Notes under the pieces: generated by a model
Told to the model about the DNA's origin: nothing
The model's database searches: none
What the model saw: the letters and a program-made list of their open reading frames with translations, nothing else
DNA from: a bacterium UBP8_UBA817
Lineage (GTDB): Bacteria > Margulisbacteria > Marinamargulisbacteria > SXXA01 > SICP01
Assembly: GCA_945898045.1 (NCBI GenBank)
Contig: CAMDGG010000002.1
Coordinates: forward strand, 19,231-83,230
DNA length: 64,000 nt
Reading direction: 5' to 3'
Made by a program: the position numbers and the translations under genes
Shown here: positions 28,549 to 56,405 of the stretch, one piece after another
How positions within the stretch are numbered: position 1 is the stretch's first letter
How the letters are laid out: each line of letters starts with the position of its first letter

Positions 28549-28953
28549 TGGGGGTGTATTTGGCTTCGACGGGATAGATCTAAGATATGAGACGCGAGCC
28601 GAGGAGATGCCAGGCCTCGTAAAAAGGCATAAAAAAAATAGTTAACACAACTAAATTAGGTAAAACTCTAGCTTTTGATTTCGCACCAGCGAGGTTGGCA
28701 GCCTAGAAACCAAGCCACAGCCGCTTAATTAAGCAGCTGCGCCGTCCTCAAAGTCGTTGACGCTTTGAAAGACGCAACCAGTCAACTAGCCACTAGGTTT
28801 TGATCTCGGCCTAAGTAGCGAAATCAAGAAATCTCGCGATTAAACGCCTCGTTTTCAAGACGCTTAATCGTTAAATCAACTGAAAACTACGCTCGTAGTT
28901 GCCTCTTATCAAAGCTATTTCGGACACCGGTTCGATTCCGGTCACCTCCACCA
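28549..28953 (+). ncRNA. ssrA: tmRNA (SsrA)
   Basis: 5' end GGGGGTGTATTTGGCTTCGACGGG. 3' tRNA-like end GGACACCGGTTCGATTCCGGTCACCTCCACCA with a G3:U70 wobble pair in the acceptor stem. Internal tag reading frame GCT TTT GAT TTC GCA CCA GCG AGG TTG GCA GCC TAG, which would encode AFDFAPARLAA*. Confidence 0.9.
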
Positions 28954-28962
28954 TAATCCAAA

Positions 28963-29814
28963 CTAGCCCAAGATATTTTCTTGTTGATTTTGCAATTTCA
29001 AAATAGCTTTCGCATTTAATGCCGTAACCACTTTTTTACCGGTCTTAGCCTCCAATTCCTTCCGGGCCACCTTCGCAACATTTCCACCTTGTTTCGCCAC
29101 GATTTTACTCTCTTCAAAATCCTTTGGATTGACTACCGCCGAAATATCTTTGGTGGATGCTTCTGCAAGCATATTTAAAATCAGTTCGGTGTTCGTCATG
29201 TTATCCCGGAGATTTTCCTTCTTCAAACCTTTCAGTGCCCTATAGTCTTTAGTAGTTTTATCGGCCCATGCTTTGGTTATAATATCGGTGAGCGTTGCAA
29301 ACTGAACACCCTCCTTCAGACCTCGTTTTTTCCATTCATTTGTAAGTTCTTTACGTATCTCAATACTTTTCAGCCGTTGATTAATCCAGCTTTCAGAATA
29401 CCCCAATTGCAAATACTGCTCTAAAGCACGATCGATACTCAGTTCTGGATCTTGCATCTCATCTAGTCTTTCAGACGCTACTTGTGCAAGCCATAGTTTA
29501 AAGGGCTCAGCTTTGGGCGATGGGATAGATTGTATAAGGCGGAAAAGTTGTTCTGTGTCGGCAACATCGGTCATCCGCATTTTGCCATCAGGGGCCTTCA
29601 TTTTCAAACCGTTACAATTTGTAACGGTTTCATTCCCCTCATCCTTTAATCGCTTTTTTAACACCCGCCAATACACCTGAGGATTTGGGCTTTCTGTTAA
29701 TACGAAAATCACATCCACAACGGACAAATACCATTTTTCCTGATCAGCATCCCATAGCGTTCTTACTTTTTTGTCTTCAAATATTTTTATATCGTTTTCT
29801 TTTTTCATATTCAA
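28963..29814 (-). CDS. DinD-like (DNA-damage-inducible protein D family) protein with an N-terminal Bro-N-type domain
   Basis: IKIFEDKKVRTLWDADQEKWYLSVVDVIFVLT (Bro-N-like). KGLKKENLRDNMTNTELILNMLAEAST parallels E. coli DinD RKGLKKNQKILDHMGSTELAANLF. Size 283 aa versus 274 aa for DinD. Confidence 0.7.
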   Translation of the reverse strand: MNMKKENDIKIFEDKKVRTLWDADQEKWYLSVVDVIFVLTESPNPQVYWRVLKKRLKDEGNETVTNCNGLKMKAPDGKMRMTDVADTEQLFRLIQSIPSPKAEPFKLWLAQVASERLDEMQDPELSIDRALEQYLQLGYSESWINQRLKSIEIRKELTNEWKKRGLKEGVQFATLTDIITKAWADKTTKDYRALKGLKKENLRDNMTNTELILNMLAEASTKDISAVVNPKDFEESKIVAKQGGNVAKVARKELEAKTGKKVVTALNAKAILKLQNQQENILG

Positions 29815-30828
29815 TTACAAATTCCTTAACAGTTCATCAAAATCACTACTACTATTTTGAATTTGCTCCAAATGAAATAAATCATATTCTTTCTCCGCCA
29901 ACGCAATAGCTACATCATGAGAAACCTTTCCGCTATCTTGTAATATATCCTGCTCATTAAATTTCAAAAAAGAATCCATCTTTTCTGCCCAATCATTCAT
30001 CGTCATCACCTGACGATTTTGAGCCTGAAATTCTGCAAAATCCAGATACATCGTCACAATGCGATTAAGCTGATCTAATTCACTAGCCGTCAAATAATTT
30101 TTAGCGATGCCCACATCCGCTTTTCGTATCATACCCTTCGGCGAATTTTTCCAATTCGTGAGCCCCATATTTTCTTTTTCACGATCTACACGATCATAAA
30201 TTAGCTCAGCAGCCGTTTGCCCCGTAATAGCAAAATGCAATTTATTTTGAACCGTCGCAAAAAACTGCTGCGTTATTTCATGGTTCGGGTCATAGTCGGA
30301 ACTACACTTGGCATAAATATCCGTAATCTTCTGATAAAACCGCCGTTCACTAGACCGAACATCACGTATTCTCGCCAACTGCTCGTCAAAATAGTCTTTT
30401 CCAAAAGGTTGATTAGGATTTTTAAGGCGCTCATCATCCATCGTAAATCCTTTGATAATATATTCCTTGAGCCGCTCCGTTGCCCATATACGAAACAAAG
30501 TAGCATTCCGAGAATTTACCCGATACCCAACCGAAATAATGGCATCGAGATTGTAGCATTCTATTTGCCTAGTAACAGTTCTCAAGCCCTCTTGTTGAAC
30601 TTGTGCAAAATTTGCACAAGTTGAATCCCTAGCCAATTCTTCGGCTAAATAAATATTTTTTAGATGCTTGGTCACCACACTTCTGTCTACAGCAAACAAA
30701 GTTGCAATCTGAGACTGAGTTAGCCATAAAGTTTCATTATAAAGATGAATTTCTACATTCACCTTTCCATTCGGAGTTGTATAAAATAAAAAATTTTTGA
30801 TCACACCATAAGAACTAATATTTGTCAT
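29815..30828 (-). CDS. RhuM-family protein (virulence protein RhuM / PF13310-like)
   Basis: YNLDAIISVGYRVNS...FRIWATERLKEYIIKGFTMDDERLK is the hallmark RhuM block. 337 aa, as in Salmonella RhuM. Confidence 0.75.
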   Translation of the reverse strand: MTNISSYGVIKNFLFYTTPNGKVNVEIHLYNETLWLTQSQIATLFAVDRSVVTKHLKNIYLAEELARDSTCANFAQVQQEGLRTVTRQIECYNLDAIISVGYRVNSRNATLFRIWATERLKEYIIKGFTMDDERLKNPNQPFGKDYFDEQLARIRDVRSSERRFYQKITDIYAKCSSDYDPNHEITQQFFATVQNKLHFAITGQTAAELIYDRVDREKENMGLTNWKNSPKGMIRKADVGIAKNYLTASELDQLNRIVTMYLDFAEFQAQNRQVMTMNDWAEKMDSFLKFNEQDILQDSGKVSHDVAIALAEKEYDLFHLEQIQNSSSDFDELLRNL

Positions 30829-31940
30829 AAAATCATCAAGCCACGATGAATTTTATTACCAGTCAGCGTTTCAGAAATATCACTTAATCCGGTCTTAAAA
30901 TCCATTTCTAAATACTCAAATACACTAATCGCACCTGGGCCCAACAAAGATTCAAAACGTTTCTTCACCTGACCAGAATTATCGGGATTATAAACCAAAA
31001 ATTTTCTCAAGAGCCTATCCCCAGCTGTACCTAATCCAAACAAATGTTTAAAAAATGAATCTGTTTCTGGGAGCGAAAATCCAATAACAACTATATATTC
31101 AGCTTTCCCCAATTCATCTGCAGCTTTTTTCCAAATAGTAGACAAAGAATTGTGATAACCCGACTTATTCCATGTAGGCGGAACAATAAAAGACGTAGGG
31201 CTTTGCTTCACAGAACGTTCACTAAAATTATTGGTTAATTTTTCACTAAGAATCAAAGGTCCGTTTCGTCCGATATTATCCCAACTATTAAAATCTTTTT
31301 TGGCATCACTTAAAAAATCTGCCACCTGATATACCTTCACCTCAGATTTTTGACTTACCCAATTCAAAGAACCATGAAGTTTAAATAAATTACAAAATTT
31401 AGACTTTTTAATATTTGAATCAAACCCATAATAAGGAGTTAAATCTGAATTCTGTAAAGCAATATCAAGAGCAACATCATAATTAAAAGTCAATATGGAT
31501 GATTCAAAGTTATACTTATTAAGGTTCTTTAATAATTCCACAAATCCACCGTAACTCCCAGAAGAGGAAAATACACCCGAATTATCTATAGAAAATAAAA
31601 TTGATTGTTCAAGAGTTGAGACTATAACTCTCACAAGAGAGGCTATCAGCTTCTTAATATCTTTCTGTGGATAATCTGGCAACTTGTTGATTAATTGAGA
31701 AAACTCAAAAAGAGTATAAATAGACTCAATATTATTCAAATCCAGTAGTGATTTAGAATGAATTTTTTGAAGCTTTTGGATAGCAAAAAAAACTTGTTCA
31801 AATTCTATCCTGTACTTTTCCACTTTTCCTTCTAACAATAAATCTCTAGATACATTCAAAAAATCTTTCATGAGAGGCGCACCACAATCTTGAGATGCTC
31901 CCGCACCTAAAATAAAAACTATTTTCTTAGTTGCTGACAT
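30825..31940 (-). CDS. SIR2-like (SIR2_2/DUF4020-type) domain protein with a ~170 aa uncharacterised C-terminal region. Candidate NAD+-depleting defence effector.
   Basis: KKIVFILGAGASQDCGAPLMKDF (GAGxS motif), LTFNYDVALDIAL, FKLHGSLNW. Overlaps both neighbours (ATGA at 30825-30828; 14 nt overlap at 31927-31940). Confidence 0.7.
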   Translation of the reverse strand: MSATKKIVFILGAGASQDCGAPLMKDFLNVSRDLLLEGKVEKYRIEFEQVFFAIQKLQKIHSKSLLDLNNIESIYTLFEFSQLINKLPDYPQKDIKKLIASLVRVIVSTLEQSILFSIDNSGVFSSSGSYGGFVELLKNLNKYNFESSILTFNYDVALDIALQNSDLTPYYGFDSNIKKSKFCNLFKLHGSLNWVSQKSEVKVYQVADFLSDAKKDFNSWDNIGRNGPLILSEKLTNNFSERSVKQSPTSFIVPPTWNKSGYHNSLSTIWKKAADELGKAEYIVVIGFSLPETDSFFKHLFGLGTAGDRLLRKFLVYNPDNSGQVKKRFESLLGPGAISVFEYLEMDFKTGLSDISETLTGNKIHRGLMIL

Positions 31941-32307
31941 TTTTAATCCCCCCTAGCAAAAAATACGGCGAAATGAATCTGAGTAATTGTATAGCCTCAT
32001 AAGAATTAACCCGATAGCCAACGGCAATGATGGCATCAAGATTATAGAAATTGGTTTGGTAGGTTTTTCCGTCTTCGGCAGTATGCGCAAAAATTGCACT
32101 AACTGAATCTCCGCTTAATTCTTCCTCTGAAAAGATGTTTTTAAGGTGCTTTGTGATAACAGTACGATCAACGCCAAACAACTCGGCCATCTTTTTCTGA
32201 GACAACCAAATCGTTTCATCCTGAAAAACTACCTCAACCTTAACCTCTCCCTTTGGAGAGGTATACATCAAAAACTGAGATTCAACAGGCAGTAAATCTT
32301 TATCCAA
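31927..32307 (-). pseudogene. Truncated RhuM-family N-terminal domain paralog (126 aa). It either reads into or was replaced by the SIR2-like gene.
   Basis: About 60% identical to the N-terminus of the 29815-30828 protein (FLMYTSPKGEVKVEV...YNLDAIIAVGYRVNS) and lacks the C-terminal two-thirds. Confidence 0.6.
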
Positions 32308-40603: not shown

Positions 40604-41527
40604 CGAAAGATGCTGCTTAATCCAAGCTTGCCCTTCCTCAATAGTATGAAATTCACCCGCAATCTGAGCCGCATAAATCTGTTTCAAAAGCGTCCCCATT
40701 TCTGAACCCGCCTTCACACCTAAGGCCTGCAAATCTCTCCCTAAAATAATCGGCTTAGGTTTCTTAGACGCTTCTACTTTTCTAGCAATCGAAGACGGCA
40801 TACCAAAATGAGCTACCATCATACCCAGCACATCATTCGGATAATCAGCCAATCGCACGATGCCCAATTTTTCTGCCGCAAAAAGCCCCAAAACGGGCTT
40901 CTTGGAAAGCAAAATCATCTTCCGAGTCTCCGCCCATTTGCGATCATTTGAAATATCTTCTAATGAAAGGGAGCTGCACAACGCGACTGTCTCGGGTGCA
41001 ATATCCAGTTCAAATCGGGCCGAAAATTGCATTGCCCGAAACACCCTCAGGGGGTCTTCTGAAAATCGAGGCCCCACATGCCGAAAGAACCGTCTCTCCA
41101 AGTCATTCCGGCCCCCAAACGGATCCAAAAACTCACCCGTTTCCATCACAAATCCCATGGCATTCATCGTAAAATCCCGACGCGACGCCGCCTCTTCAAA
41201 AGACATATCCCCATCTGCTTCAACTTCAAAATCCACATGCTTCTTGCCAGTTTTACGTTCTCTGCGTGGCAATGAAAAATCAATCTCCAGACCATCCACT
41301 TTCATTTTCACAACAGAAAAAAAGGCCCCCACCAAATTCACCTTTCCAAAAGCAGCCAAAATCCGAACCAGTTCGTCATAAGAAGCAATCCCAAAAACTT
41401 CTACATCAAAATCAGTAACAGGTATTCCCAACAACGAATCTCGAACACACCCGCCCACTAAAACAGCACGCCCCCCTAATTTATGAATTGCTTGTGAGAT
41501 TTTGGCTAAGCTTTCAGGAAAAATCAC
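40598..41527 (-). CDS. cca: CCA-adding tRNA nucleotidyltransferase (minimal class II head and neck)
   Basis: GGCVRDSLLGIPVTDFDVEVFG and the RRDFTMNAM motif. Confidence 0.8.
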   Translation of the reverse strand: MIFPESLAKISQAIHKLGGRAVLVGGCVRDSLLGIPVTDFDVEVFGIASYDELVRILAAFGKVNLVGAFFSVVKMKVDGLEIDFSLPRRERKTGKKHVDFEVEADGDMSFEEAASRRDFTMNAMGFVMETGEFLDPFGGRNDLERRFFRHVGPRFSEDPLRVFRAMQFSARFELDIAPETVALCSSLSLEDISNDRKWAETRKMILLSKKPVLGLFAAEKLGIVRLADYPNDVLGMMVAHFGMPSSIARKVEASKKPKPIILGRDLQALGVKAGSEMGTLLKQIYAAQIAGEFHTIEEGQAWIKQHLSL

Positions 41528-42687
41528 AATAACCCTTCATGCAACCAAGAGACGAGCGACCGAATTTTGACTCCATTAGGATATGATTTTTCTCGATTAC
41601 ACTCCAAAACCAACTGCACTCGATTAGGAACCTCAATTTTATTCTCAAAATAAGAAAACTGGGAACTCAAATTCATATCAGCATATTTTACTTCAAATAA
41701 TGAATGAGGCACTTGATTCATAACTACTAGAAAATCGATTTCCTTGCCCTCTTTAGTACGAAGAAAATGTAAACTCCCCTTTATGCCTTTCGTATCTCTC
41801 AAAAAAGAAAGATCTCGATAGAGAGATAAAGCAACCAAATTTTCAAGTTTAGCCCCTTCAGAATTAGGAAAATCAACACGGCAATAGTCATAAAAATAAT
41901 ATTTAGAATCTTTTAAAATGGCCCTCGCAACATTCTTAGAATAAGGAGTCACACGAAAAATAATATACAAATTCTCCAAAAGCTGAAGCCATCTCTTCAC
42001 TGTATTGGCATCACATTCCAAATCACGAGCCAAATTGCTATAAGAAACCGTTGAACCTACCCTGCGAGACAACAACTCAATCAATAACTCAATTTTTTTA
42101 ATATCTCGAATCGTCGCCAAATCAATCAAATCTTCTCGCAAAATCACATCCAGATGACTCTGCTTCCACCGATCATAAAAAACTTTATCTCCATTCAAAA
42201 AAGGTTCTGGAAATCCACTACACTCCCACAATCGACGAAACGCTTCTTTAGGTTCAAACAAAACCAAGGCTTCTTTAAAATCAACAGGAAATAAACTGTA
42301 CTGAAAAAAACGACCCGCCAAAGAATCCCCTACTTTTTTGTACGTATCTAATTTGGCGCTTCCAGTCACAAGCCATCGAGGAGGAATACCCTGCACATCA
42401 TAAATACCTTTTAGCCATCTCTTCCAAGAATCCATTTTATGAACTTCATCCAATATGACCAAAGAACTATCACGACGCCAAGATGCTTCCTTGAGGGCTA
42501 TACGATCAGGCGCATAATCATAGTTAAAATAATCCGCATTAGGATAAAGACCCCGAGCCAACGTCGTTTTACCTGATTGCCTTGGACCAGAAAGCAAAAC
42601 AATTTTTGTTTCTAAGTCAGTCAAAATATACGAAACTAGGGATCGATTCATTAACGACCATTCTGACATAAATTCCGTTTTAGTCAA
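41524..42687 (-). CDS. COG1373-type AAA+ ATPase (AAA_14 plus DUF4143), paralog of 24290-25528
   Basis: Walker A SGPRQSGKTT and Walker B LVILDEVH. Translationally coupled (ATGA) to cca. Confidence 0.7.
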   Translation of the reverse strand: MTKTEFMSEWSLMNRSLVSYILTDLETKIVLLSGPRQSGKTTLARGLYPNADYFNYDYAPDRIALKEASWRRDSSLVILDEVHKMDSWKRWLKGIYDVQGIPPRWLVTGSAKLDTYKKVGDSLAGRFFQYSLFPVDFKEALVLFEPKEAFRRLWECSGFPEPFLNGDKVFYDRWKQSHLDVILREDLIDLATIRDIKKIELLIELLSRRVGSTVSYSNLARDLECDANTVKRWLQLLENLYIIFRVTPYSKNVARAILKDSKYYFYDYCRVDFPNSEGAKLENLVALSLYRDLSFLRDTKGIKGSLHFLRTKEGKEIDFLVVMNQVPHSLFEVKYADMNLSSQFSYFENKIEVPNRVQLVLECNREKSYPNGVKIRSLVSWLHEGLL

Positions 42688-46728: not shown

Positions 46729-46792
46729 CGCGCTATGATAAGTGCAAAGTGCCCAATACACAAGAAATGCCCTAAATGATAGAATCAACTTT

Positions 46793-48034
46793 ATGCAGAA
46801 TTTATTAATTACAGATTTTATCCCACACCGATATCCCTTTTTACTCATCGACGCACTGATCGAATGGGAAAACCGCAAACGCGCCGTAGGCATCAAAAAT
46901 ATTTCCCTCATGGACCCTTGGATGCAAGGACATTTCCCACAACATCCCATCATGCCAGCAAGTATGATCATTGAAGCTATGGCCCAAACAGCCGCCACAA
47001 TCTTCTCAAAAGACCCAGAATTTTCTACCCAACTTCCACTCTACGACGAACTCAAAAATGTACACTTCAAAAAATCAGCCTACGCCGGCGATCAGCTCAG
47101 ACTTGAAACAGACGTCATTAAGCTCAAACCCAATGAAATTAGCGTAGAAGCCAAGGCATTGGTAGACGGAAAAGTCATCGCAGAATGTACATTCATCTAC
47201 GCTATGACCAGCAAAGCATCTCGCCCACACATTCATCCCACCGCCTCTGTTCACGCGTCTGCCAGCCTCGGAAAAGACGTCGTCGTCGGCCCGTACACCA
47301 TGATCGGCGAAAACGTGATCATTGGAGACCGAACCGTTTTGGAAGCCAATATTTTGATCGAACGCGATACGCAAATTGGCGAAGATTGTCACGTCCATTT
47401 TGGCACGGTGATTGGCTCCAACGCACAAGATTTAAAATACAAAGGCGAACGCACCGCCGTTATTATTGGTGATCGAAACGACATTCGAGAATACGTCACC
47501 ATTAACCGATCTACAGGCAAAGACACGTCCACGGTTATAGGCTCAGACAATATTTTCATGACCAGTGTCCACATCGGACATAATTGCGTCCTTGGAAATA
47601 ACATTATTATTGCAAACACCTGCAACCTTGCTGGCCACTGTTTTGTAGAAGATCGGGCCATTATTGGCGGCATGACCGGCATCCATCAATTTACCCGCAT
47701 TGGCAAAGGGGCCATGGTCGGCGGATACTCACGCATTACACAAGATATAGCGCCCTTTACATTGTGCGAAGGCAATCCGGCTGTAATCCGAAATATCAAC
47801 GCAATCGGGCTCAAACGTAGCGGATCTTCTGCTAGCGAAATCACCGAAATCAAACACATCTTCCGAACTATTTTCAGGTCCAACAAAGTATTTTCAGAAG
47901 CAAAAAAAGATGTGCAAGCACTCACACCAATATCTGAAAACGCCAAACATTTAATCGATTTTTGCTTAGCCGATTCGCCTCGAGGCCTAACCCTCAAAAA
48001 AGAAGCATCCGACACAGAAACCATAACCGATTAA
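46793..48034 (+). CDS. Apparent FabZ-LpxA fusion (3-hydroxyacyl-ACP dehydratase fused to UDP-GlcNAc O-acyltransferase)
   Basis: N-terminal FabZ hot-dog region (ITDFIPHRYPFLLID, GHFPQHPIMPASMIIEAMAQ) runs without a stop into an LpxA hexapeptide-repeat region with an LpxA-like C-terminal helical domain. Confidence 0.75.
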   Translation: MQNLLITDFIPHRYPFLLIDALIEWENRKRAVGIKNISLMDPWMQGHFPQHPIMPASMIIEAMAQTAATIFSKDPEFSTQLPLYDELKNVHFKKSAYAGDQLRLETDVIKLKPNEISVEAKALVDGKVIAECTFIYAMTSKASRPHIHPTASVHASASLGKDVVVGPYTMIGENVIIGDRTVLEANILIERDTQIGEDCHVHFGTVIGSNAQDLKYKGERTAVIIGDRNDIREYVTINRSTGKDTSTVIGSDNIFMTSVHIGHNCVLGNNIIIANTCNLAGHCFVEDRAIIGGMTGIHQFTRIGKGAMVGGYSRITQDIAPFTLCEGNPAVIRNINAIGLKRSGSSASEITEIKHIFRTIFRSNKVFSEAKKDVQALTPISENAKHLIDFCLADSPRGLTLKKEASDTETITD

Positions 48035-48035
48035 G

Positions 48036-49139
48036 ATGCAAAACCTACTAATTATCGCCGGAGAAGTATCGGGCGACCAATACGCCAGCAAGCTTGCCGA
48101 AACCCTAAAAAAACGAGATCCTCAACTAAATCTCCACGGCATCGGAGGCACACAACTTAAAGCCCAAACAGACCACTTCGTCTACGAAAGCGCTTACTCC
48201 CATGCCATGGGAAATTGGGAACATTGGAAAAAAAGACATCAAACCAAAATTCTGTTAGAAGCCCTCGAAACCTATCTCAAAACCACCCCTATCGACAAAG
48301 CCATTCTCATTGATTTTCAACATGCCAATTTCCAAATTGCTACTATTCTCCAAAAATATAACATTCCGATCTACACGTTTATCAGCCCCAACTTTTGGAT
48401 CTGGAATGACACCCGGAGCGCCAAAAAAATTGCCAAATACAGCCACACCATTTTCACCATTTTTGAACAAGAATATCAGCTCTATCACCCACTCCATCCC
48501 AGAGTCTATTATTTCGGACATCCGCTTCTATCACTTCGTCCACCCATGACAGATCCTACGCAAACTAAAAATCGCCACACCCTCACACTATTTCCTGGCT
48601 CCAGAGACCAAGAAATTCACTACCACTTTCCAGCCATGCTTAAAACCATACAAATCCTACAAAAAAATCAGGCTACTCATCCCATCCAAATAGCCGTCAT
48701 GAATCCCACCATACGAAAATTGATCAATCACTATCTCAAAAAATATCCCATTCAAAACGTACAATTTAAAGACGCTACATCACCCGATCTCCTGACAGAC
48801 ACAATGCTACTTCTCTGCGTCGCGGGAACTGTCACGCTCGAAGCGTTACTTACCTACACCCCCATGATCGTTTTAGGCGCTGTCTCCCCTATCACATTCT
48901 GGCTTGGAACCCATATCCTTAGAGTCAAACTCCCCCGAATTGCGCTCCCGAACATCGTCATGGAACAAACCATCATTCCAGAATTTATACAAAATTTTGA
49001 TCCCGAAAAAATTGCAGAAACCATAACAAAACTAGACACTAAAATGCTGGATCGCTATCCAGAAATCCTCAAAAAATTCACCAAAGATCCCAACCCGTTT
49101 GAAAGTATCGCCACAGTACTCTTAAAGGAGAAATCATGA
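48036..49139 (+). CDS. lpxB: Lipid-A-disaccharide synthase
   Basis: N-terminus MQNLLIIAGEVSGDQYASKL and the GT19 pattern. Confidence 0.85.
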   Translation: MQNLLIIAGEVSGDQYASKLAETLKKRDPQLNLHGIGGTQLKAQTDHFVYESAYSHAMGNWEHWKKRHQTKILLEALETYLKTTPIDKAILIDFQHANFQIATILQKYNIPIYTFISPNFWIWNDTRSAKKIAKYSHTIFTIFEQEYQLYHPLHPRVYYFGHPLLSLRPPMTDPTQTKNRHTLTLFPGSRDQEIHYHFPAMLKTIQILQKNQATHPIQIAVMNPTIRKLINHYLKKYPIQNVQFKDATSPDLLTDTMLLLCVAGTVTLEALLTYTPMIVLGAVSPITFWLGTHILRVKLPRIALPNIVMEQTIIPEFIQNFDPEKIAETITKLDTKMLDRYPEILKKFTKDPNPFESIATVLLKEKS

Positions 49140-49483
49140 ACCTTAAAACATTTACCCTTGTTGAACTCTGCATTGTACTCAGCGTCATAGGCATATTGGC
49201 CATTATTATCGTCCCGAAAGTCGCTTCAACCACAAAAGAAACCAATCAAAAAGCACATAAATTTCAACGACAATTTATTAATACACAGCTCGAACTCTAT
49301 CACTTTCAAAACAATACATTCCCGATTCCAAGCGGAAATTTATCCGCATGGACCGACAATTTTAAGGATTATTTTCCGCAAGGGGTTCCCACAAAAGATG
49401 TCTACGGATATGATTGGGAAATCAATGCCCATGGCCAAGTAAACCTAGACGCCATGGAAGCCAAACACGGCAAACTCGAATAA
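49136..49483 (+). CDS. Prepilin-type (type IV pilin or pseudopilin-like) protein
   Basis: N-terminal FTLVELCIVLSVIGILAIIIVP matches the prepilin cleavage and methylation motif, with Glu at +5. Coupled to lpxB (ATGA). Confidence 0.6.
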   Translation: MNLKTFTLVELCIVLSVIGILAIIIVPKVASTTKETNQKAHKFQRQFINTQLELYHFQNNTFPIPSGNLSAWTDNFKDYFPQGVPTKDVYGYDWEINAHGQVNLDAMEAKHGKLE

Positions 49484-49511: not shown

Positions 49512-50156
49512 ATGCAATTTTTCATCGATACAGCAGACATCAGCGCCATTAAAAAAGCCAACGACATGGGCCTAGTTGACGGCGTTACGACCAACCCCAC
49601 CCTCATCAAAAAAGCAGGCCGCGATCACGAAGCCACTATCAGAGAAATAAGCGACCTCATCTCAGGCCCAGTCTCTGTAGAAACCATCAGCGAAGATGCT
49701 GCAGGCATGCTAAAAGAAGCCAAAACCTACCTCAAATGGGGCAAAAATATCGTCATCAAAGTCATTATGTCCCCAGAAGGCATGAAAGCCGTCCGCGAAC
49801 TCTCCAGCCAAGGCCACAAAACCAACGTCACCCTCTGCTTCTCCCCACTCCAAGCCCTCATCGCAGCCAAAGCCGGCGCCACCTACATCTCTCCCTTCGT
49901 CGGCAGACTCGACGACATCAGCCACTACGGCATGGAACTCATTTCTCAAATCCGCGACATCTACGACAACTACGAATTCGACACCCAAATCCTAGTCGCC
50001 AGCGTCAGAAGCCCCATCCACCTACTAGACGCTGCAACCATCGGAGCAGACGTGGCCACAGTTCCACCCGCAACCCTCATGCAAATCTTTAATCATCCGC
50101 TAACAGAAAGTGGGATTAAAGCATTTTTGGAAGATGCGAAGGCTTGGCAGAAATAG
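49512..50156 (+). CDS. Transaldolase-family fructose-6-phosphate aldolase/transaldolase (Fsa/TalC type)
   Basis: MQFFIDTADISAIKKANDMGLVDGVTTNPTLI; 214 aa. Confidence 0.85.
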   Translation: MQFFIDTADISAIKKANDMGLVDGVTTNPTLIKKAGRDHEATIREISDLISGPVSVETISEDAAGMLKEAKTYLKWGKNIVIKVIMSPEGMKAVRELSSQGHKTNVTLCFSPLQALIAAKAGATYISPFVGRLDDISHYGMELISQIRDIYDNYEFDTQILVASVRSPIHLLDAATIGADVATVPPATLMQIFNHPLTESGIKAFLEDAKAWQK

Positions 50157-50235
50157 GATTGCAATCCTAATAAATAGACGTTTTAATAGGATCGCACTAC
50201 GTTAATACACGAAAAAGAAAACCTCAAGAAAGAAT

Positions 50236-51198
50236 CTAAAATGTTAACCCAGGCATATACTTACTTGGATGGAGAGTTCTTTCAATTTCATCCAAGTACT
50301 TTTTTAAAATAAATTGAGCCAAGTTTTGTGAAGTAAATTCCCTATTATTTTTAGAGTCTGATTGCCAAACATATTGCTCTGAATCACTTAAAAAAAAGTC
50401 GAATTCAAAACTTTCATCCACAACAGGATCACCATAGCGGCCCTGTCTTATACCGCCCTTCCAAAACTCTATTTTCAATTTTGATTTCTCAAGAGTGTTA
50501 AGATAGTTATGCATCCAAGTGACGCCTAAAGAGCAATAATTCAAACAAATTATTTGCAAATTATTTTCAGCGTGTTTGCTGTTTATTGTAACATCAACAC
50601 TAAGTGAAACGTCAGACTGCCATTGGGTAATAAATTCATTTTTTAACTTTTGAAATTCTGCATTTGCAGCGTTTACTCCATCTATTGAATTTCGCAATCT
50701 CTCTCTTATAAATTTGAGATTCATTGCACGATCCAAACGTTTTGATCGATCCTCCAGAGATTCTTCCCTAACCTCTCCCCCAAGCCTCTGGATATTCGCC
50801 TCAATAACCCCCACAGCTCTTTCAAGACCAAACCTCTTTAAATTAACCCATAGTTTATTGTTTGGGACCCACTTAGGAACAGAAGACAACTCATCCAAGG
50901 GCATAAAAATCACAAAATCAAACCCGTGATCATGGGCTCGATTACGAATAGCCGTTTCTTCGATACGAGTCCAAGACGTTTGTCCCCATTCCTTTCTATA
51001 CAAAACTATTACTAAGCGAGATTCCTCTCCAAAAACCGCATTAAAAAGCTTCTCTCCATCACCGCCAGCAAGATCTTCTTGTCGTTTCGAATAATGAAAA
51101 ACCATATACCTATCTTGCAAAAGATCCGCAAGTTTAGTGGCTAAAGATTCATCCTCAGCTAAAAAGGAAAATGCAATATCATACTTATATTCCGTCAC
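50236..51198 (-). CDS. TIR-domain protein with a ~180 aa uncharacterised C-terminal domain
   Basis: N-terminus KYDIAFSFLAEDESLATKLADLL...VF matches the bacterial TIR start (YDVFISY..ED). A candidate catalytic Glu lies in EESRLVIVLYRKEW. Confidence 0.6.
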   Translation of the reverse strand: MTEYKYDIAFSFLAEDESLATKLADLLQDRYMVFHYSKRQEDLAGGDGEKLFNAVFGEESRLVIVLYRKEWGQTSWTRIEETAIRNRAHDHGFDFVIFMPLDELSSVPKWVPNNKLWVNLKRFGLERAVGVIEANIQRLGGEVREESLEDRSKRLDRAMNLKFIRERLRNSIDGVNAANAEFQKLKNEFITQWQSDVSLSVDVTINSKHAENNLQIICLNYCSLGVTWMHNYLNTLEKSKLKIEFWKGGIRQGRYGDPVVDESFEFDFFLSDSEQYVWQSDSKNNREFTSQNLAQFILKKYLDEIERTLHPSKYMPGLTF

Positions 51199-51830
51199 TA
51201 CTTCACCTCAGGCCGCAACCACAAACTAATCGATAACAACCGAGGCAAAAACGAAACAGTCGCTTTCTCTGGTGCCAGAAAAACCTGTTTCGTTTTACCA
51301 TCGGGCATCGGCACCAAGACGGCAGATTTCATCAACTGAGGCCCTGCAAAAATCAAAGGCTTTTTGTAAAACGTCGCCATATCCAAACGCGCAAAATTAA
51401 TCCGTTGTCCCAACACATCAAAATACAAATCTACAAACGCATTCTTCGGCGAAAGTTGTATCAAATTCTGAGCCACATTATACGTCACGACCAAAGACCC
51501 TTTCGCTTCACTATTAGTTCCCAATAATCCCATATTTACCGCAACATTCGCCGTAAAAAAAGCGTCGTTATTCAAAAACTGAATCTTAGGATTTTTAACC
51601 GTCCAATGCGCCTTACCAGACAACATCGGAACATTCACAGTCGTCGATCCAGAAATCGGCCCCATCGCAGATAACAGGGCATTCACTAGCGTTTCATCCA
51701 CCGAAAACACAACCGATGGAGGTCTTGAAATGGGTTGCACAACCAAACTATTGGCAGTTGGCATAATAATTTGGCCATAGGTACCAACCGAAAAAATAGT
51801 CAGACTTAGGATAAGTAAAAGTTTTCTCAC
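51198..51830 (-). CDS. Hypothetical secreted protein or lipoprotein
   Basis: Signal peptide MRKLLLILSLTIFSVGTYGQ. Abuts the valS stop and shares a start/stop overlap with the TIR gene. Confidence 0.45.
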   Translation of the reverse strand: MRKLLLILSLTIFSVGTYGQIIMPTANSLVVQPISRPPSVVFSVDETLVNALLSAMGPISGSTTVNVPMLSGKAHWTVKNPKIQFLNNDAFFTANVAVNMGLLGTNSEAKGSLVVTYNVAQNLIQLSPKNAFVDLYFDVLGQRINFARLDMATFYKKPLIFAGPQLMKSAVLVPMPDGKTKQVFLAPEKATVSFLPRLLSISLWLRPEVK

Positions 51831-54391
51831 AACTCTACAATCACATCCAATTCAGAAGTAGAAACAACCATCTCATACACTTCAACCACACCCGCCAAAA
51901 CAACATCTCCCATCGCAAGAAACACCCTATCTAACGCATCCTGCGAGCCAGAAATAGTCAATTTTTTCACGGGATATTTCAAACTTTGTTTGTTTTCAGA
52001 TTTAGCACCGCGAATTTCACCCATCACGAAAGCCGCAGAGTCCATAACAAGCGACAACACATCCGACGAAACCCCAGACCATTCCGATACACTTGGCCAA
52101 CTCGCCCGATGTATCGACCCGCCATCCGAAAACCGCCAAGACCAAATCTCTTCAGTCACATACGGTAAAAACGGAGCAAATAATCGCAAAAATAATCGCA
52201 ACGCTTCCTGCAACGTCGCAAGAGCAGACAACCGTTTTGCTTCGTCCGTCTCACGATATGCCCGCACTTTTACTAACTCAATATACTGATCACAAAAATA
52301 CCAAAATCCAGACTCCGACAACTCCAAACACGCCGCATAATCCAGCGTCTCAAAAGCCCGCGTTGCCTTAATAACCAATTCCCGTAATTTTTGCAAATAC
52401 GCCACATCCACCGGCTGCGTAATCTGATCCGCAGTCGGCTTTTCATCCCCCAACTGCAACATCACAAACTTACTCGCATTAAACAATTTCGTCGCAAGCT
52501 TCTGACCCATCTGAAAAATCGTTTCTTCAAACGCTGTATCCACGCCCAACCGCGCCCGTGTCGCCCAATACCGCACAGCATCCGACGAATACTGATCCAA
52601 CAACGCATTCGGCGTGACAACATTCCCTTTTGACTTACTCATTTTTTTACGATCTGGATCCAACACCCAGCCACTAATCACCACATGTTTCCAAGGAATT
52701 TCCTGATGATGCATCCACGCTTTCGTAATCGTATAAAACGCCCACGTCCGAATAATCTCATGCGACTGCGGACGAATATCCATCGGGAAAATTTTGGCGT
52801 GTCGATCGTTATTCGGCCACTGACTCGCTATCTGAGGGGTCAACGACGACGTCGCCCATGTATCCATTACATCCGGATCACCCATAAACCCATTAGGCTT
52901 CCCACGTTGGTCTTCTGTAAACCCATCTGGCACATCCGACATTGGATCAACCGGAAGCTGCTCTTCACGCGCAAAAATCGGCTTTGCATAATCCGGATTT
53001 CCCAACGCATCCATCGGATACCAAACCGGAAACGACACCCCAAAAAACCGCTGACGACTAATACACCAATCTTGATTCAATCCCTCTACCCAATTCTGAT
53101 ATCGGGCCTTCATAAAACTAGGATGCCATTCAATCTTATCGCCCTGTTTCACAAGCGCTTCTTTATGCTCCAAAATCCGCACAAACCATTGGCGCGTCTT
53201 CATAAACTCAAGCGGAGAATCTCCCTTTTCATAAAACTTTACGGGGTGCTCAATGATCTCCAAAGGCTGCATCATTGCACCAGATTCCGCCAACAACTCA
53301 GCAATTTTCGTCTGTGCTTGCTTCACCCGAAGACCTTCTAAAGGCGCATACCACTTGGCAGCTGTTTCTGCGTCTACACTTTCAAACGGTGCCTGCGTAA
53401 AATCAACGGGCAACATGCGACCATTCGCACCAATCACCTGCTTAATCGGCAAAGACTGTTGCTTCCACCACGCAACGTCCGCGGCATCTCCAAACGTACA
53501 TACCATCAAAATCCCACTACCCTTTTCAGGATCAGCATGAGTCGATGCCAAAATAGGAACACGCGCACCAAATAACGGCGTAACCGCAAACTTTCCAAAT
53601 AAGTCTTTATATCGGACATCATCCGGATGCGCCACAACCGCAATACAAGCGGGCAACAATTCTGGACGCGTCGTCGCAATCATAAAATCACCACCGTGTT
53701 CCACGTGAAACTGCACATGATGATACGCCCCAGGACGTGGCCGATCTTCTACTTCAGCCTGGGCAACCGCCGTCCGAAAATCCACATCCCACATCGTCGG
53801 AGATTCCACCTGATATACAAACCCTTTCTTAGCCATTTCCAAAAACGAATACTGGCTCACACGCTGACAATGCCGATCAATCGTCGCATATTGCAACGAC
53901 CAATCCACCGACAATCCCAACTGTCGCCACATCGACTCAAACGCCTGCTCATCTTCGGCAGTTAAAATCCGACACGCATCAATAAAATTACGACGAGACA
54001 CCGGCACTAGCGGCCCATCTTTCACACGTTTTTCAGGCATCCAAGCCGGCTCATAAGCCAACGTCGGATCGCACGTAATCCCAAAAACATTCTGCACCCG
54101 ACGCTCTGTCGGCAATCCATTATCATCCCAACCCATCGGATAAAAAACCGACTTTCCACACATACGCTGATACCGCGCCAACACGTCCGTCTGCGTATAA
54201 CTAAATACATGTCCCACATGCAACGATCCCGAAACAGTAGGCGGCGGTGTATCTACCGAAAACGTATTCTCACGATCCGCACTAGAATCCCATTTATATA
54301 CATCAGACTCATCCCAAACTTGTTGCCATTTTTTTTCAATCGAACCATGTTCATAACGCGCAGGTAATTCAGTCATAATAATCCTCTTCAA
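51827..54391 (-). CDS. valS: Valine--tRNA ligase (archaeal or short type)
   Basis: Class I HIGH motif SGSLHVGH, KMSKS motif, YPMGWDDNGLPTE, 854 aa. Confidence 0.75.
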   Translation of the reverse strand: MKRIIMTELPARYEHGSIEKKWQQVWDESDVYKWDSSADRENTFSVDTPPPTVSGSLHVGHVFSYTQTDVLARYQRMCGKSVFYPMGWDDNGLPTERRVQNVFGITCDPTLAYEPAWMPEKRVKDGPLVPVSRRNFIDACRILTAEDEQAFESMWRQLGLSVDWSLQYATIDRHCQRVSQYSFLEMAKKGFVYQVESPTMWDVDFRTAVAQAEVEDRPRPGAYHHVQFHVEHGGDFMIATTRPELLPACIAVVAHPDDVRYKDLFGKFAVTPLFGARVPILASTHADPEKGSGILMVCTFGDAADVAWWKQQSLPIKQVIGANGRMLPVDFTQAPFESVDAETAAKWYAPLEGLRVKQAQTKIAELLAESGAMMQPLEIIEHPVKFYEKGDSPLEFMKTRQWFVRILEHKEALVKQGDKIEWHPSFMKARYQNWVEGLNQDWCISRQRFFGVSFPVWYPMDALGNPDYAKPIFAREEQLPVDPMSDVPDGFTEDQRGKPNGFMGDPDVMDTWATSSLTPQIASQWPNNDRHAKIFPMDIRPQSHEIIRTWAFYTITKAWMHHQEIPWKHVVISGWVLDPDRKKMSKSKGNVVTPNALLDQYSSDAVRYWATRARLGVDTAFEETIFQMGQKLATKLFNASKFVMLQLGDEKPTADQITQPVDVAYLQKLRELVIKATRAFETLDYAACLELSESGFWYFCDQYIELVKVRAYRETDEAKRLSALATLQEALRLFLRLFAPFLPYVTEEIWSWRFSDGGSIHRASWPSVSEWSGVSSDVLSLVMDSAAFVMGEIRGAKSENKQSLKYPVKKLTISGSQDALDRVFLAMGDVVLAGVVEVYEMVVSTSELDVIVEL

Positions 54392-54465: not shown

Positions 54466-55833
54466 TTGCCAGAACACATATGGACAAAACATATTAAAAT
54501 GCCATTTTATGAGAAAAAAATTCATTTTTATAAATTTAGTGATATAATCCAGCCCATGTTAGTAGAATTCTCAGCGAAAAACTTTAGATCCATCAACGAA
54601 AAACAAACTATATCCTTTTTACCGGTTAAGGCCAAAAGCTCTGGGATAGAAAAAGGTGAGCTCCCAAATAATATCACTTCAGAAAGTATCCCACTTCTTA
54701 AAACTATCATTCTTTTCGGAAAAAATGCTTCCGGAAAAAGCAACCTACTAAAAGCCATCCGGCGACTACAAATATTAGTTATACAATCTGGGTCAATTTC
54801 ACCAGAAACAAAAATACCTTACGACCCATTTAAACTTGATAAAAACAAAACAAATGAATCTACAACTTTCGAAATTAAATTTCTCATTAAAGAAACTGTT
54901 TTTAGATATAAAATTGTCTTCAATCAAACGCAATTTTTACTAGAAGAACTATACAGCAACAAAGCCAAATTATTTGTGCGTCACCATGGAAAAACCATCA
55001 ATTTTGGACCGTCTCTACATGGACCAAAAAAAGCCATTGAAAAATTAACTGGGGAAAACCAACTATTTTTGTCAAAAGCCGGAACAAACAATTTTGAGGA
55101 ATTTAAAGAAATTTATCATTTTCTAACCTCTATCAATATCCGAATAAATATTTCAGACGAGATCCATAAAAGCTGGGATTACTACCTCGATAACTTAGCT
55201 AAAGCAATACCACAAAAAACGGCAGAACAATTTATTATCAATATATTAAAAGCTGCCGACGTAGGCATTGAATCTTTCGGTTATAAAAAAAGAGAAGAAA
55301 AAGAGTTTAAATTCCCAGAAGGAATGCCTGAAGATATAAAAGAGACCATCCTTTCTCAAAACAGACTAGCCTTAAAAACAATTCACAAAAGATTCGCAAA
55401 CGGGGACGAAGAAGACACGACGGATTTTGCAATAGAAGAAGAATCTGACGGAACACTCATGTTCCTAAAAACTACCATAAGAACTCTAATTAGTATTTCT
55501 ACAGGCTCCCCATTAATAATCGATGAACTTGACATCAATTTACATCCAAAGTTAGTTGAAGTTATTCTCGATCTATTTCATAGCCAAAACAACAAAAATG
55601 GCCAGTTAATATTTACAACACACAACACATTGTTTTTATCAAAAAAATATTTTCGTAGAGATCAAATATATTTCGCAGACAAAGAAGAAAATGGTTCCAG
55701 TGAATTCTATTCTTTAGCAGCAATTGAAGGCATTCGCCCAGACGCCCCTTACGACAAATGGTATATGAGCGGGAAGTTTGGTGCAGTACCTCTGACAAGC
55801 ATAGAAGAAATAACAAATAACTTCATTACATGA
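54466..55833 (+). CDS. AAA_21/AAA_15-type ATPase (AbiLi-like, OLD-family ATPase module). The likely true start is MLVEFSAKNFRSI at ~54556.
   Basis: Walker A FGKNASGKSNLL; C-terminal Walker B LIIDELDINLHP; conserved N-terminal NFRS motif. Confidence 0.7.
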   Translation: MPEHIWTKHIKMPFYEKKIHFYKFSDIIQPMLVEFSAKNFRSINEKQTISFLPVKAKSSGIEKGELPNNITSESIPLLKTIILFGKNASGKSNLLKAIRRLQILVIQSGSISPETKIPYDPFKLDKNKTNESTTFEIKFLIKETVFRYKIVFNQTQFLLEELYSNKAKLFVRHHGKTINFGPSLHGPKKAIEKLTGENQLFLSKAGTNNFEEFKEIYHFLTSINIRINISDEIHKSWDYYLDNLAKAIPQKTAEQFIINILKAADVGIESFGYKKREEKEFKFPEGMPEDIKETILSQNRLALKTIHKRFANGDEEDTTDFAIEEESDGTLMFLKTTIRTLISISTGSPLIIDELDINLHPKLVEVILDLFHSQNNKNGQLIFTTHNTLFLSKKYFRRDQIYFADKEENGSSEFYSLAAIEGIRPDAPYDKWYMSGKFGAVPLTSIEEITNNFIT

Positions 55834-56405
55834 CCCAATATCGAAAAGAAAAAAAACGCCCCCTCAAGAAACAATTCCTAATATTATGCGAAGGCGAAAC
55901 AGAAGTTTTGTATTTTAAAACATTCAGAAAAGAAAACAGAGTTAAATTATCTGCAGTTGACGTTATTCCATACAAACCTATTAACCATGACCCAAATGGC
56001 CTTGTAGAACAAGCTATCAAAGAGAAAAAAAAAGGTGAGTACGAAAAAATCTGGGTTGTTTTTGATAGAGATTGCCATCACAAAATAGATACCGCTCAGA
56101 AAAAAGCGCAAGTAAATAAGATCAATATTGCATACTCAAACATATGCTTTGAATTTTGGATCTTGCTCCACTTTGAGGAAACTTCAAGAGCATTCAGAAG
56201 TAAAGACGAATTAGTCAAATACTTAAAAAAAGAACATAATCATGCAAAAGACATTAACCATTACGATAAATTAAAACCAAATATGAAATTGGCTATAGAA
56301 CGAGCTAAGAAACTAAAAAAAGAAAATCAAAAAACAACACTCACTTTCGAAACAAACCCACAAACTAATATTCACGAAATCATTACTGACCTTCTCGATT
56401 GTTAA
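55830..56405 (+). CDS. RloB-like protein (AbiLii-like, Toprim-related)
   Basis: N-terminal FLILCEGETEVLYF (the RloB ILIVCEGEKTEpnYF motif) and VVFDRD. Coupled to the ATPase gene (ATGA). Confidence 0.65.
   Translation: MTQYRKEKKRPLKKQFLILCEGETEVLYFKTFRKENRVKLSAVDVIPYKPINHDPNGLVEQAIKEKKKGEYEKIWVVFDRDCHHKIDTAQKKAQVNKINIAYSNICFEFWILLHFEETSRAFRSKDELVKYLKKEHNHAKDINHYDKLKPNMKLAIERAKKLKKENQKTTLTFETNPQTNIHEIITDLLDC

Follow-up and report, generated by a model that had tools for sequence, protein, structure and literature searches.

A lone TIR-domain gene with a new C-terminal module in a defense hotspot of Candidatus Margulisbacteria

In a 64,000-nucleotide stretch of DNA from a bacterium of the Marinamargulisbacteria lineage (contig CAMDGG010000002.1 of assembly GCA_945898045.1, positions 19,231 to 83,230 of the forward strand; hereafter the window), a gene on the minus strand at 50236..51198 encodes a protein of 320 amino acids (aa) that joins an N-terminal TIR domain to a C-terminal domain (CTD) of about 175 aa. 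This TIR-CTD gene belongs to a large, uncatalogued family of lone TIR genes with a new C-terminal module, while the kind of system it represents, single-protein TIR immunity, is known. We consider it fairly probable that the gene is a self-contained, one-protein antiphage system of the abortive-infection type. This reading is favored because of the TIR fold, the solitary occurrence of the gene, its location in a hotspot, the modular C-domain, accessory-like evolution, the defense-related or mobile contexts of some copies, and the precedents among characterized systems. A defense role was already in view in the initial annotation of this DNA, which was made from the sequence alone, and it is still the best reading given the contexts of the family and a hotspot slot shared with known defense genes. 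The features on which the argument depends are as follows.

50236..51198, minus strand: TIR-CTD gene, 320 aa, GTG start and TAG stop (open reading frame [ORF] list and sequence)
50764..51198, minus strand: N-terminal TIR domain, aa 1-145 (Pfam TIR_2, Foldseek, family alignment)
50959..50961, minus strand: codon of Glu80, candidate catalytic glutamate (W76-T-R-I-E80), invariant in 66 sequences
50236..50763, minus strand: C-terminal domain, aa 146-320 (AlphaFold2 predicted local distance difference test [pLDDT] 90.1), with SxxGVxAA (S171-A178), NxLxxSxL (N234-L241), F268 and W278
51204..51209, minus strand: Shine-Dalgarno-like hexamer GAGGTG, 5 nucleotides upstream of the TIR-CTD GTG and within the end of the 210-aa ORF
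51198..51830, minus strand: 210-aa backbone gene, signal-peptide-like, no cysteine, directly upstream of the TIR-CTD gene
51827..54391, minus strand: valS, backbone gene at the head of the overlapping row (Pfam tRNA-synt_1 and NCBIfam alt_ValS)
49512..50156, plus strand: tal (transaldolase/FSA), convergent backbone gene (Pfam TAL_FSA 1e-57; synteny)
54466-55833, plus strand: AbiLi (AAA_21; PADLOC 4.7e-79)
55830-56405, plus strand: AbiLii/RloB (PADLOC 3.4e-28)

The TIR domain and the module behind it

Homology indicates that the ORF at 50236..51198 is a real gene and no chance reading frame, since a search of 5.8 billion proteins returned 394 relatives, mostly full-length (306-337 aa) and 42-50% identical, and since the ratio of nonsynonymous to synonymous substitution rates (dN/dS) was 0.41 against a 77%-identical ortholog (locus L001). 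The bacterial TIR signature that had been recognized at the N-terminus was borne out. The motif YDIAFSFLAEDE occupies aa 6-17, and its residues S11, F12, D16 and E17 are invariant, together with W76 and E80, in 66/66 family sequences. A full-length AlphaFold2 model built on the family alignment (pLDDT 89.4) gave TIR domains as all of its best Foldseek matches in the PDB, each with a probability of 1.00: SPARTA TIR-APAZ (E 2e-4), MyD88, AbTir (TM 0.72, root-mean-square deviation [rmsd] 3.3 A over 142 columns), MAL, TLR10, and plant TIRs. When the family profile was run against PDB sequences, it returned only coiled-coil noise (E > 3).

A search with the Pfam profile TIR_2 (PF13676), which had been proposed as a check, gave a divided answer. 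The window protein itself fell short on aa 9-121 (19.5 bits, E 0.0014, under the gathering cut-off of 28), while 60/66 relatives were matched at E <= 0.05, with a best E of 4.8e-7. The prediction of a TIR domain with its flavodoxin-like beta-alpha fold holds despite this sub-threshold score because of the modeled fold, the TIR_2 matches across the family, and the invariant glutamate. The lack of both a profile match and a conserved glutamate had been named as grounds for giving up the TIR call; here, TIR_2 matches are found in the family and Glu80 is invariant in 66 sequences.

E80 lies within the motif WTRIEE at the start of helix alpha-C, four residues past W76, a spacing that we take to be that of the catalytic glutamate in the SxWCxxE motif of plant and bacterial TIR NAD+-cleaving enzymes (NADases). 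A Bacillus cereus plasmid carries a type I Thoeris locus, and E80 also aligns with the glutamate in the WTRHE motif of a ThsB-type TIR encoded there. The TIRs of this locus, apart from which no cultured organism supplied similar sequences, are 23% identical to the window protein over aa 3-145, and one of them matches ThsB1 (8e-12) and adjoins ThsA (2e-182); this Thoeris TIR was the sole relative from annotated collections. We infer a catalytic role for E80, with its equivalence to the glutamate of characterized NADases resting on knowledge of the motif.

Behind the TIR domain, the C-terminal part had been described as about 180 aa with no recognizable motif, and this description stands: the roughly 175 aa have no match in Pfam, NCBIfam, or PADLOC, and no Pfam model matched this region in any of the 66 members. 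Modeled alone, the C-domain forms a two-helix hairpin, a six-stranded antiparallel sheet, and a C-terminal helix (pLDDT 90.1, predicted TM-score [pTM] 0.84). The structure prediction that the initial annotation had called for is thus a confident one, and its fold found no match in the PDB (best E 0.28) or BFVD. For Bacteroidota relatives whose BLAST alignments ended at residue 185, a distinct C-domain was considered and rejected, as hhalign returned the same domain with a probability of 98.4% (E 9e-15).

A profile of the C-domain only was searched against 1.84 billion cluster representatives (50% identity clusters) and matched 1104 proteins at E <= 1e-3 and 581 at E <= 1e-10. Among the best 150 matches, 73 carried a complete TIR and the C-domain, 28 a partial TIR and the C-domain (likely fragments), and 37 the C-domain only (likely fragments), while 12 had a different N-terminal region. 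The other heads found in front of the C-domain were the following.

P0239: PIN_8 nuclease-like (1.5e-65)
P0256: GGDEF (1.9e-33)
P0168: SEFIR/TIR_2 (1e-18; PADLOC bSEFIR 1.5e-62)
P0150: like PADLOC candidate PDC-S60 (2e-29)
P0196 and P0202: unannotated, "FxSWQSD"

Across all seven architectures, S171, G174, V175, A177, L185, N234, L236, S239, L241, F268, and W278 are invariant or nearly so. Because the same residues are kept behind all seven heads, the alignments indicate that the C-domain is a conserved module beneath exchangeable enzymatic heads. Such an arrangement is the usual design of one-protein conflict systems. We also considered whether the C-domain might be a generic C-terminus of bSEFIR proteins, which was unsupported; 119 SEFIR relatives of P0168 were found without it.

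A hotspot between housekeeping genes

The gene is the last in a minus-strand row of valS, the 210-aa gene, and the TIR-CTD gene, and the overlap of its start with the upstream stop at 51198, reported earlier, is seen in the sequence. The junction reads ...GAG GTG AAG TAG followed directly by TG ACG..., so that one G is common to the GTG start of TIR-CTD and the TAG stop of the 210-aa ORF. The 210-aa ORF and the valS stop overlap by 4 nucleotides, and valS itself is identified by NCBIfam alt_ValS at 1191 bits. A scan of the row for terminator- and promoter-like sites was uninformative, as the counts equaled the expectation from shuffled sequence. Given the overlapping ORFs and terminator-like sites no commoner than in shuffled sequence, co-transcription of the three genes is plausible. 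As a separate observation, the hexamer before the TIR start is GAGGTG in the genomes with the TIR cassette and GAAGTG in a sister genome, L076, that carries SoFic, a single-base change in the coding end of the 210-aa gene.

The upstream neighbor had been called a lipoprotein, a label we withdraw because the protein has not one cysteine and so no lipobox. Its N-terminus is hydrophobic and signal-peptide-like, and cysteines are likewise missing from a 92%-identical homolog. No family in Pfam, PADLOC, or NCBIfam matched it. With just 3 homologs in the 5.8 billion proteins, each directly 3' of valS, and a dN/dS of 0.13, it is an orphan limited to this lineage and under purifying selection.

The closest 210-aa homolog (92% identity) is held by L076, a metagenome-assembled genome of Candidatus Margulisbacteria. 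By blastn, L076 and the window share 86-89% nucleotide identity along ftsI-ftsL-folC, valS-210aa, and tal-lpxB-fabZ/lpxA, with three clean breaks. The content of these breaks is as follows.

Slot A, between folC and valS: in the window, 56429-54461, AbiLii and AbiLi (plus strand); in L076, 38 nucleotides
Slot B, valS/210-aa junction: in the window, 51813-51964, 152 nucleotides; in L076, 6321-7069, 749 nucleotides with a 178-aa ORF6N gene (PADLOC PDC-S05, 1e-56)
Slot C, between the 210-aa gene and tal: in the window, 51196-50157, the TIR gene and 79 nucleotides; in L076, 1154 nucleotides encoding a full-length SoFic (PADLOC 9.7e-116)

Slot C is bordered on one side by the stop codon of the 210-aa gene and on the other by that of tal, which is convergent, with homology to L076 halting at 51197 and returning at 50156; SoFic occupies this slot in both L076 and L077. 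The AbiL pair sits in the short divergent intergenic region between folC and valS. Among contigs that encode an identical TIR protein, one type equals the window, AbiL included, at 100% nucleotide identity, and the strain contigs L084 and L086 (97-99% nucleotide identity) carry in slot A a 398-aa nSTAND1/AAA_16 NTPase instead of AbiL. L001 keeps the TIR cassette in slot C, whereas in a more distant relative the valS-210aa pair is followed by cysS. There is no integrase at the cassette junctions, and no att-like repeats were noticed by eye in two junction sequences, no repeat search having been run.

Because the slots hold different known defense genes in close relatives, these comparisons indicate that the TIR-CTD gene is a swappable cassette in a three-slot defense hotspot on a housekeeping operon. 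Variable defense hotspots flanked by core genes are known, for example those of P2 and P4, and the same precise swapping of unrelated defense cassettes between conserved flanks is seen here. One difference is the lack of an integrase at the junctions; another lies in the flanks, which in this case are the chromosomal housekeeping genes folC, valS, and tal of a Candidatus Margulisbacteria lineage.

The initial annotation had called the valS context unusual. The overlap of the genes is real; a functional meaning is not supported, as this is a lineage-limited cassette at a hotspot, with SoFic in the sister slot. The alternative that follows from such a meaning is a functional tie to valS and the secreted 210-aa protein, in which the TIR would have a housekeeping or regulatory role in translation or at the envelope. 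The overlapping stop and start codons and an arrangement kept in the 77%-identical orthologous locus would fit this alternative. However, for the family as a whole we drew 62 non-redundant loci from metagenomes and from species-representative genomes and clustered four genes on each side, and 60 other loci have unrelated neighbors. In addition, L076 keeps valS and the 210-aa gene with SoFic in place of the TIR gene, the distant relative has cysS there, and the GC content and evolutionary rate of the TIR-CTD gene are unlike those of the backbone genes. We therefore give this alternative almost no credence, as synteny largely refutes it. The linkage to valS is lineage-specific (window, L001, and same-species contigs) and appears to be without functional significance, because it is confined to one lineage and L076 has SoFic in the same slot.

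The rate and composition of the gene are those of an accessory or defense gene. Against the L001 ortholog, its dN/dS of 0.41 compares with 0.03 for tal, 0.07 for lpxB, and 0.13 for the 210-aa gene, which indicates that it is under purifying selection far more relaxed than that on its flanks. Mean pairwise identity in the family is 70% for the TIR domain and 38% for the C-domain; against L001, the TIR half is 91% identical (dN 0.05) and the C-domain half 62% identical (dN 0.29). The GC content is 0.37 for the gene, 0.337 for its C-domain half, and 0.32-0.33 for AbiL, compared with a median of 0.43 for the ORFs of the window, so that the TIR-CTD and AbiL genes are among its lowest-GC ORFs.

Further observations concern the two halves and the 3' end of the gene. 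When window 50236-51198 was compared with L001 2273-3238, dS was 0.16 in the TIR half and 0.76 in the C-domain half, and this almost five-fold gap suggests that the gene is a mosaic whose C-domain was swapped by recombination with a divergent allele. At window 50155-50259, the 3' end of the TIR gene has about 69 extra nucleotides relative to L001, with a different C-terminal tail and an earlier stop. The tal stop codon is overlapped by a perfect 14-nucleotide palindrome, AGGATTGCAATCCT (50155-50168), which the TIR-carrying genomes have and the SoFic-carrying one does not.

A stand-alone gene and its possible function

The 62 loci are scattered over more than 12 phyla in a patchy manner, including Proteobacteria, Acidimicrobiia, Chloroflexota, Verrucomicrobiota, Planctomycetota, and Nitrospirota, and also Bacteroidota, Ignavibacteria, Gemmatimonadota, Acidobacteriota, Zixibacteria, Dadabacteria, and Spirochaetes. 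Apart from one Bradyrhizobium and one Terrimonas genome, the family was found only in uncultured lineages, and this near-confinement to uncultured bacteria is probably why defense catalogues are without it.

The neighbors of the gene do not form a system with it. No neighbor family is common to more than 4/62 loci, and the families that recur are generic and at varying positions (ABC ATPases, tyrosine integrases, and cargo of the type IX secretion system). No ThsA, SLOG, Macro, SIR2, or cyclase family is conserved beside the gene in the 62 loci, and no prokaryotic Argonaute (pAgo) was seen in the Pfam-annotated neighborhoods or among the recurrent neighbor families. Most copies have their own upstream intergenic region, and just five or six overlap a same-strand upstream gene. 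Since no neighbor family recurs and most copies have such a region, the comparisons indicate that the TIR-CTD gene stands alone, outside Thoeris, CBASS, Pycsar, or SPARTA operons; the SEFIR variant of the C-domain protein is likewise a lone gene. The suggestion in the initial annotation of a ThsA-like or other partner beside homologs, and with it membership in Thoeris or CBASS, was thus not upheld: no ThsA-like gene, cyclase, or other partner is conserved at the 62 loci, and no PADLOC ThsB model matched the protein.

Some contexts do point to defense or mobility. In the six with Pfam annotation, one copy lies two genes from a SIR2-STAND gene, another is carried by an F-type conjugative element together with Mrr, IS200, and SIR2_2, and one is near an antitoxin-like gene and caspase/EACC1. 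Neighbors with strong PADLOC matches are HmaC, PDC-M04A/B, a type I S subunit, PARIS AriA, mad2/3/5, RmrA, PDC-S01, CapP, BrxH, and WYL. A family-wide tie to known defense genes is suggestive on this evidence.

If the antiphage reading is correct, the N-terminal TIR would be the output, an enzyme that cleaves NAD+ and is active only when TIRs self-associate, by analogy with other bacterial TIRs. The C-domain would be the input and would hold the TIR inactive until it recognizes a sign of infection, which could be a phage protein or a small molecule. It may then drive TIR clustering and the formation of composite active sites, with NAD+ consumed and phage replication halted. The gene would have arrived by horizontal transfer as a cassette without its own promoter, in the variable defense slot where the valS operon ends, and would probably be expressed by read-through and translational coupling. 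We infer the NADase chemistry, the sensing by the C-domain, the activation by oligomerization, and the abortive outcome from characterized systems.

Several single-protein systems with TIR or TIR-like NADases are triggered by phage proteins, namely SpbK (PMC12847820), E. coli TIR systems (PMC11350192), and Swarozyc/Evangelion (10.64898/2026.05.01.722283; 10.64898/2026.06.25.731849). SpbK of the Bacillus subtilis element ICEBs1 is activated by clustering on the phage portal (PMC12847820). Like TIR-CTD, it combines a TIR and a non-TIR recognition domain in one polypeptide, has no partner gene, and resides in mobile or variable DNA; however, its sensor is N-terminal and its TIR C-terminal, an order that is reversed in TIR-CTD. 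The single TIR genes TIR-II, -V, -VI, and -IX of E. coli protect against phages and need a conserved active-site residue (PMC11350192; Wang et al. 2024). By their description they are set apart from TIR-CTD, whose C-domain has no Pfam match, as their accessory domains are TPR or none. bSEFIR and the Swarozyc/Evangelion systems, the latter built on the TIR-like DUF4062 (10.64898/2026.05.01.722283; 10.64898/2026.06.25.731849), resemble TIR-CTD in being single genes with an N-terminal head of the TIR superfamily and a C-terminal auxiliary region needed for defense. A bSEFIR-type head, in which SEFIR is stronger than TIR, is present in one C-domain relative (P0168), but the TIR-CTD protein has no match to SEFIR (Pfam) or bSEFIR (PADLOC), and DUF4062 (PF13271) matched none of the 66 members at E <= 0.05. 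SPARTA TIR-APAZ gave the best Foldseek E-values and shares a TIR followed by a helical linker. Over the full length, however, superposition gave an rmsd of >20 A, so that only the TIR part matches; moreover, the TIR-CTD protein is about 130 aa shorter and no pAgo was seen. Features of CBASS, Pycsar, or type III CRISPR are also missing, with no match to SAVED, STING, or CARF in the protein (Pfam, PADLOC) and no neighboring cyclase family that recurs. The Metis system (10.1101/2025.11.05.686725), a candidate of the "sensor plus variable effector" kind, was rejected as two-gene and based on a different enzyme.

A number of observations weigh against the antiphage reading. In addition to the TIR_2 score below the cut-off, the protein has no PADLOC or NCBIfam match, and its family is absent from PADLOC, NCBIfam, and PHROG-independent libraries. 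Two of the six Pfam-annotated contexts are plain housekeeping, and many copies lie between housekeeping genes. Strong PADLOC matches were found in a minority of the nearest neighbors, roughly 10-14/201 (two each side, 57 loci) in an uncontrolled count. No family member occurs in 50,697 phage records and no C-domain-bearing copy in 72,556 plasmid records, where the two matches are Bacillus TIR domains of about 23% identity. Since a GGDEF head generates a signal and does not kill, the N-terminal head is not uniformly a terminal effector, and TIRs can also make signaling nucleotides instead of depleting NAD+. Finally, the invariant polar motifs of the C-domain do not change with the head. This suits a conserved ligand or an intramolecular switch better than a hypervariable protein sensor, and it fits a structural role no less well than a diversifying sensor of phage proteins.

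In the main alternative, the protein is a ThsB-like signal generator whose messenger, of the cyclic-ADPR type, activates an unlinked effector such as a SIR2-type protein, so that its own NAD+ depletion is not the killing step. ThsB is the closest sequence kin of the TIR head (23% identity, with the WTRxE glutamate aligned), including the Bacillus cereus plasmid TIRs, one of which stands beside ThsA, and one C-domain relative has a GGDEF nucleotide cyclase head. SIR2_2 genes lie within 5 kb at two homologous loci, and when ThsA and SIR2 queries were run against the window (tblastn, phmmer), the sole find was a distant, low-GC SIR2-like gene at 30825-31940, 19 kb from the TIR-CTD gene. A role for this gene as a distant partner for a TIR signal is speculative, and it is only weakly similar to anything (PDB E 0.012), with no messenger-binding domain apparent in it, no test for one having been made. 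Moreover, ThsB proteins are TIR-only, about 200 aa, and adjacent to ThsA (SIR2-SLOG or Macro/TM), whereas TIR-CTD has an extra 175-aa domain and no family of the ThsA, SLOG, Macro, or SIR2 kind conserved beside it in the 62 loci. PADLOC ThsB models gave no match at E <= 0.1, and the same C-domain is fused to a PIN_8 nuclease head, a terminal effector. We regard a ThsB-like role as unlikely.

The mobile behavior of the cassette could also reflect a conflict or addiction module not aimed at phages, that is, a toxin with an autoinhibitory, antitoxin-like C-domain that stabilizes mobile DNA or acts against plasmids or competitors. The copy carried by an F-type conjugative element, the antitoxin-like gene adjoining another, and integrases near 3 loci would agree with such a module. 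Yet within the lineage, the genes that take turns with it in the hotspot (SoFic, AbiL, and STAND NTPase) are of the antiphage type, the protein has no secretion signal or immunity gene, and no copy of the C-domain is among the plasmid records. An addiction module is, on balance, quite improbable.

Animal TIR and SEFIR domains act as adaptors, and the TIR could accordingly be a non-enzymatic scaffold or adaptor, or could act on nucleic acids and not on NAD+. The weak TIR_2 score is in keeping with this, as is the dependence of bSEFIR defense on a residue of the SEFIR-SEFIR contact (Millman et al. 2022, 10.1101/2022.05.11.491447). The glutamate at the catalytic position and the SF..DE loop are, however, invariant over >12 phyla, as is typical of catalytic TIRs, and there is no partner protein to recruit; we hold this option to be very improbable.

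Beyond the one-protein antiphage system that we favor, we make a broader proposal tentatively and rate it somewhat below an even chance. The C-domain, with its invariant motifs, may be a new sensor fold, and its family, with at least 1,100 clusters, a set of one-protein immune switches whose output heads can be exchanged (TIR, SEFIR, PIN nuclease, GGDEF, and others). All of them would respond to a single conserved signal of infection, perhaps a small molecule, rather than to a phage protein that varies.

Other features of the window and significance

The window holds further features outside the hotspot, listed here.

28963-32307, minus strand: low-GC island adjoining the tmRNA gene at 28550-28953 (plus strand)
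24290-25528 (plus strand) and 41524-42687 (minus strand): paralogous P-loop ATPases, 34% identical, the second being AAA_14/DUF4143 (precomputed Pfam, identical contig)
46742-48034, plus strand: FabZ-LpxA fusion ORF (FabA, Hexapep, and Acetyltransf_11 in orthologs), directly upstream of lpxB
49136-49483, plus strand: 115-aa protein after lpxB, with a hydrophobic N-terminal segment and a sub-threshold T2SSG match (Pfam E 0.099)

The tmRNA island encodes a Bro-N protein, a 337-aa RhuM-like protein, the 371-aa SIR2-like protein (30825-31940), and a 126-aa RhuM-like fragment, and in one strain contig an integrase/AAA gene lies beside it. The SIR2-like gene has a GC content of 0.32, and its product is 20% identical to the SIR2_2 protein of locus L011. 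As the RhuM-like fragment is 56% identical to part of the larger RhuM-like protein, the SIR2-like gene looks inserted into or between RhuM copies. The island may be another defense locus. Two window proteins match the PADLOC candidates PDC-S05, PDC-S23, and PDC-S01 (to 5.5e-147), and these are most likely the pair of ATPases. Between 44000 and 60000, the GC skew of the plus strand was 0.00 to -0.52 in every 500-nucleotide window, whatever the gene strand, and this uniformly zero or negative skew points to a strong strand-compositional asymmetry in the genome.

Among bacterial immune systems, single-protein TIR NADases form an emerging class with direct parallels to TIR signaling in plants and animals, and only a minority of them have an identified sensing part. 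The family described here is numerous, spans phyla, is missing from current defense catalogues, and occurs in nearly all cases in uncultured bacteria; its C-domain recurs in combination with at least six further output domains. Should the C-domain prove to be a sensor, roughly a thousand clusters would gain an annotation and a new infection cue might come to light. To our knowledge, almost no defense biology has been described for Candidatus Margulisbacteria, and the locus documents a housekeeping-gene defense hotspot in this group.

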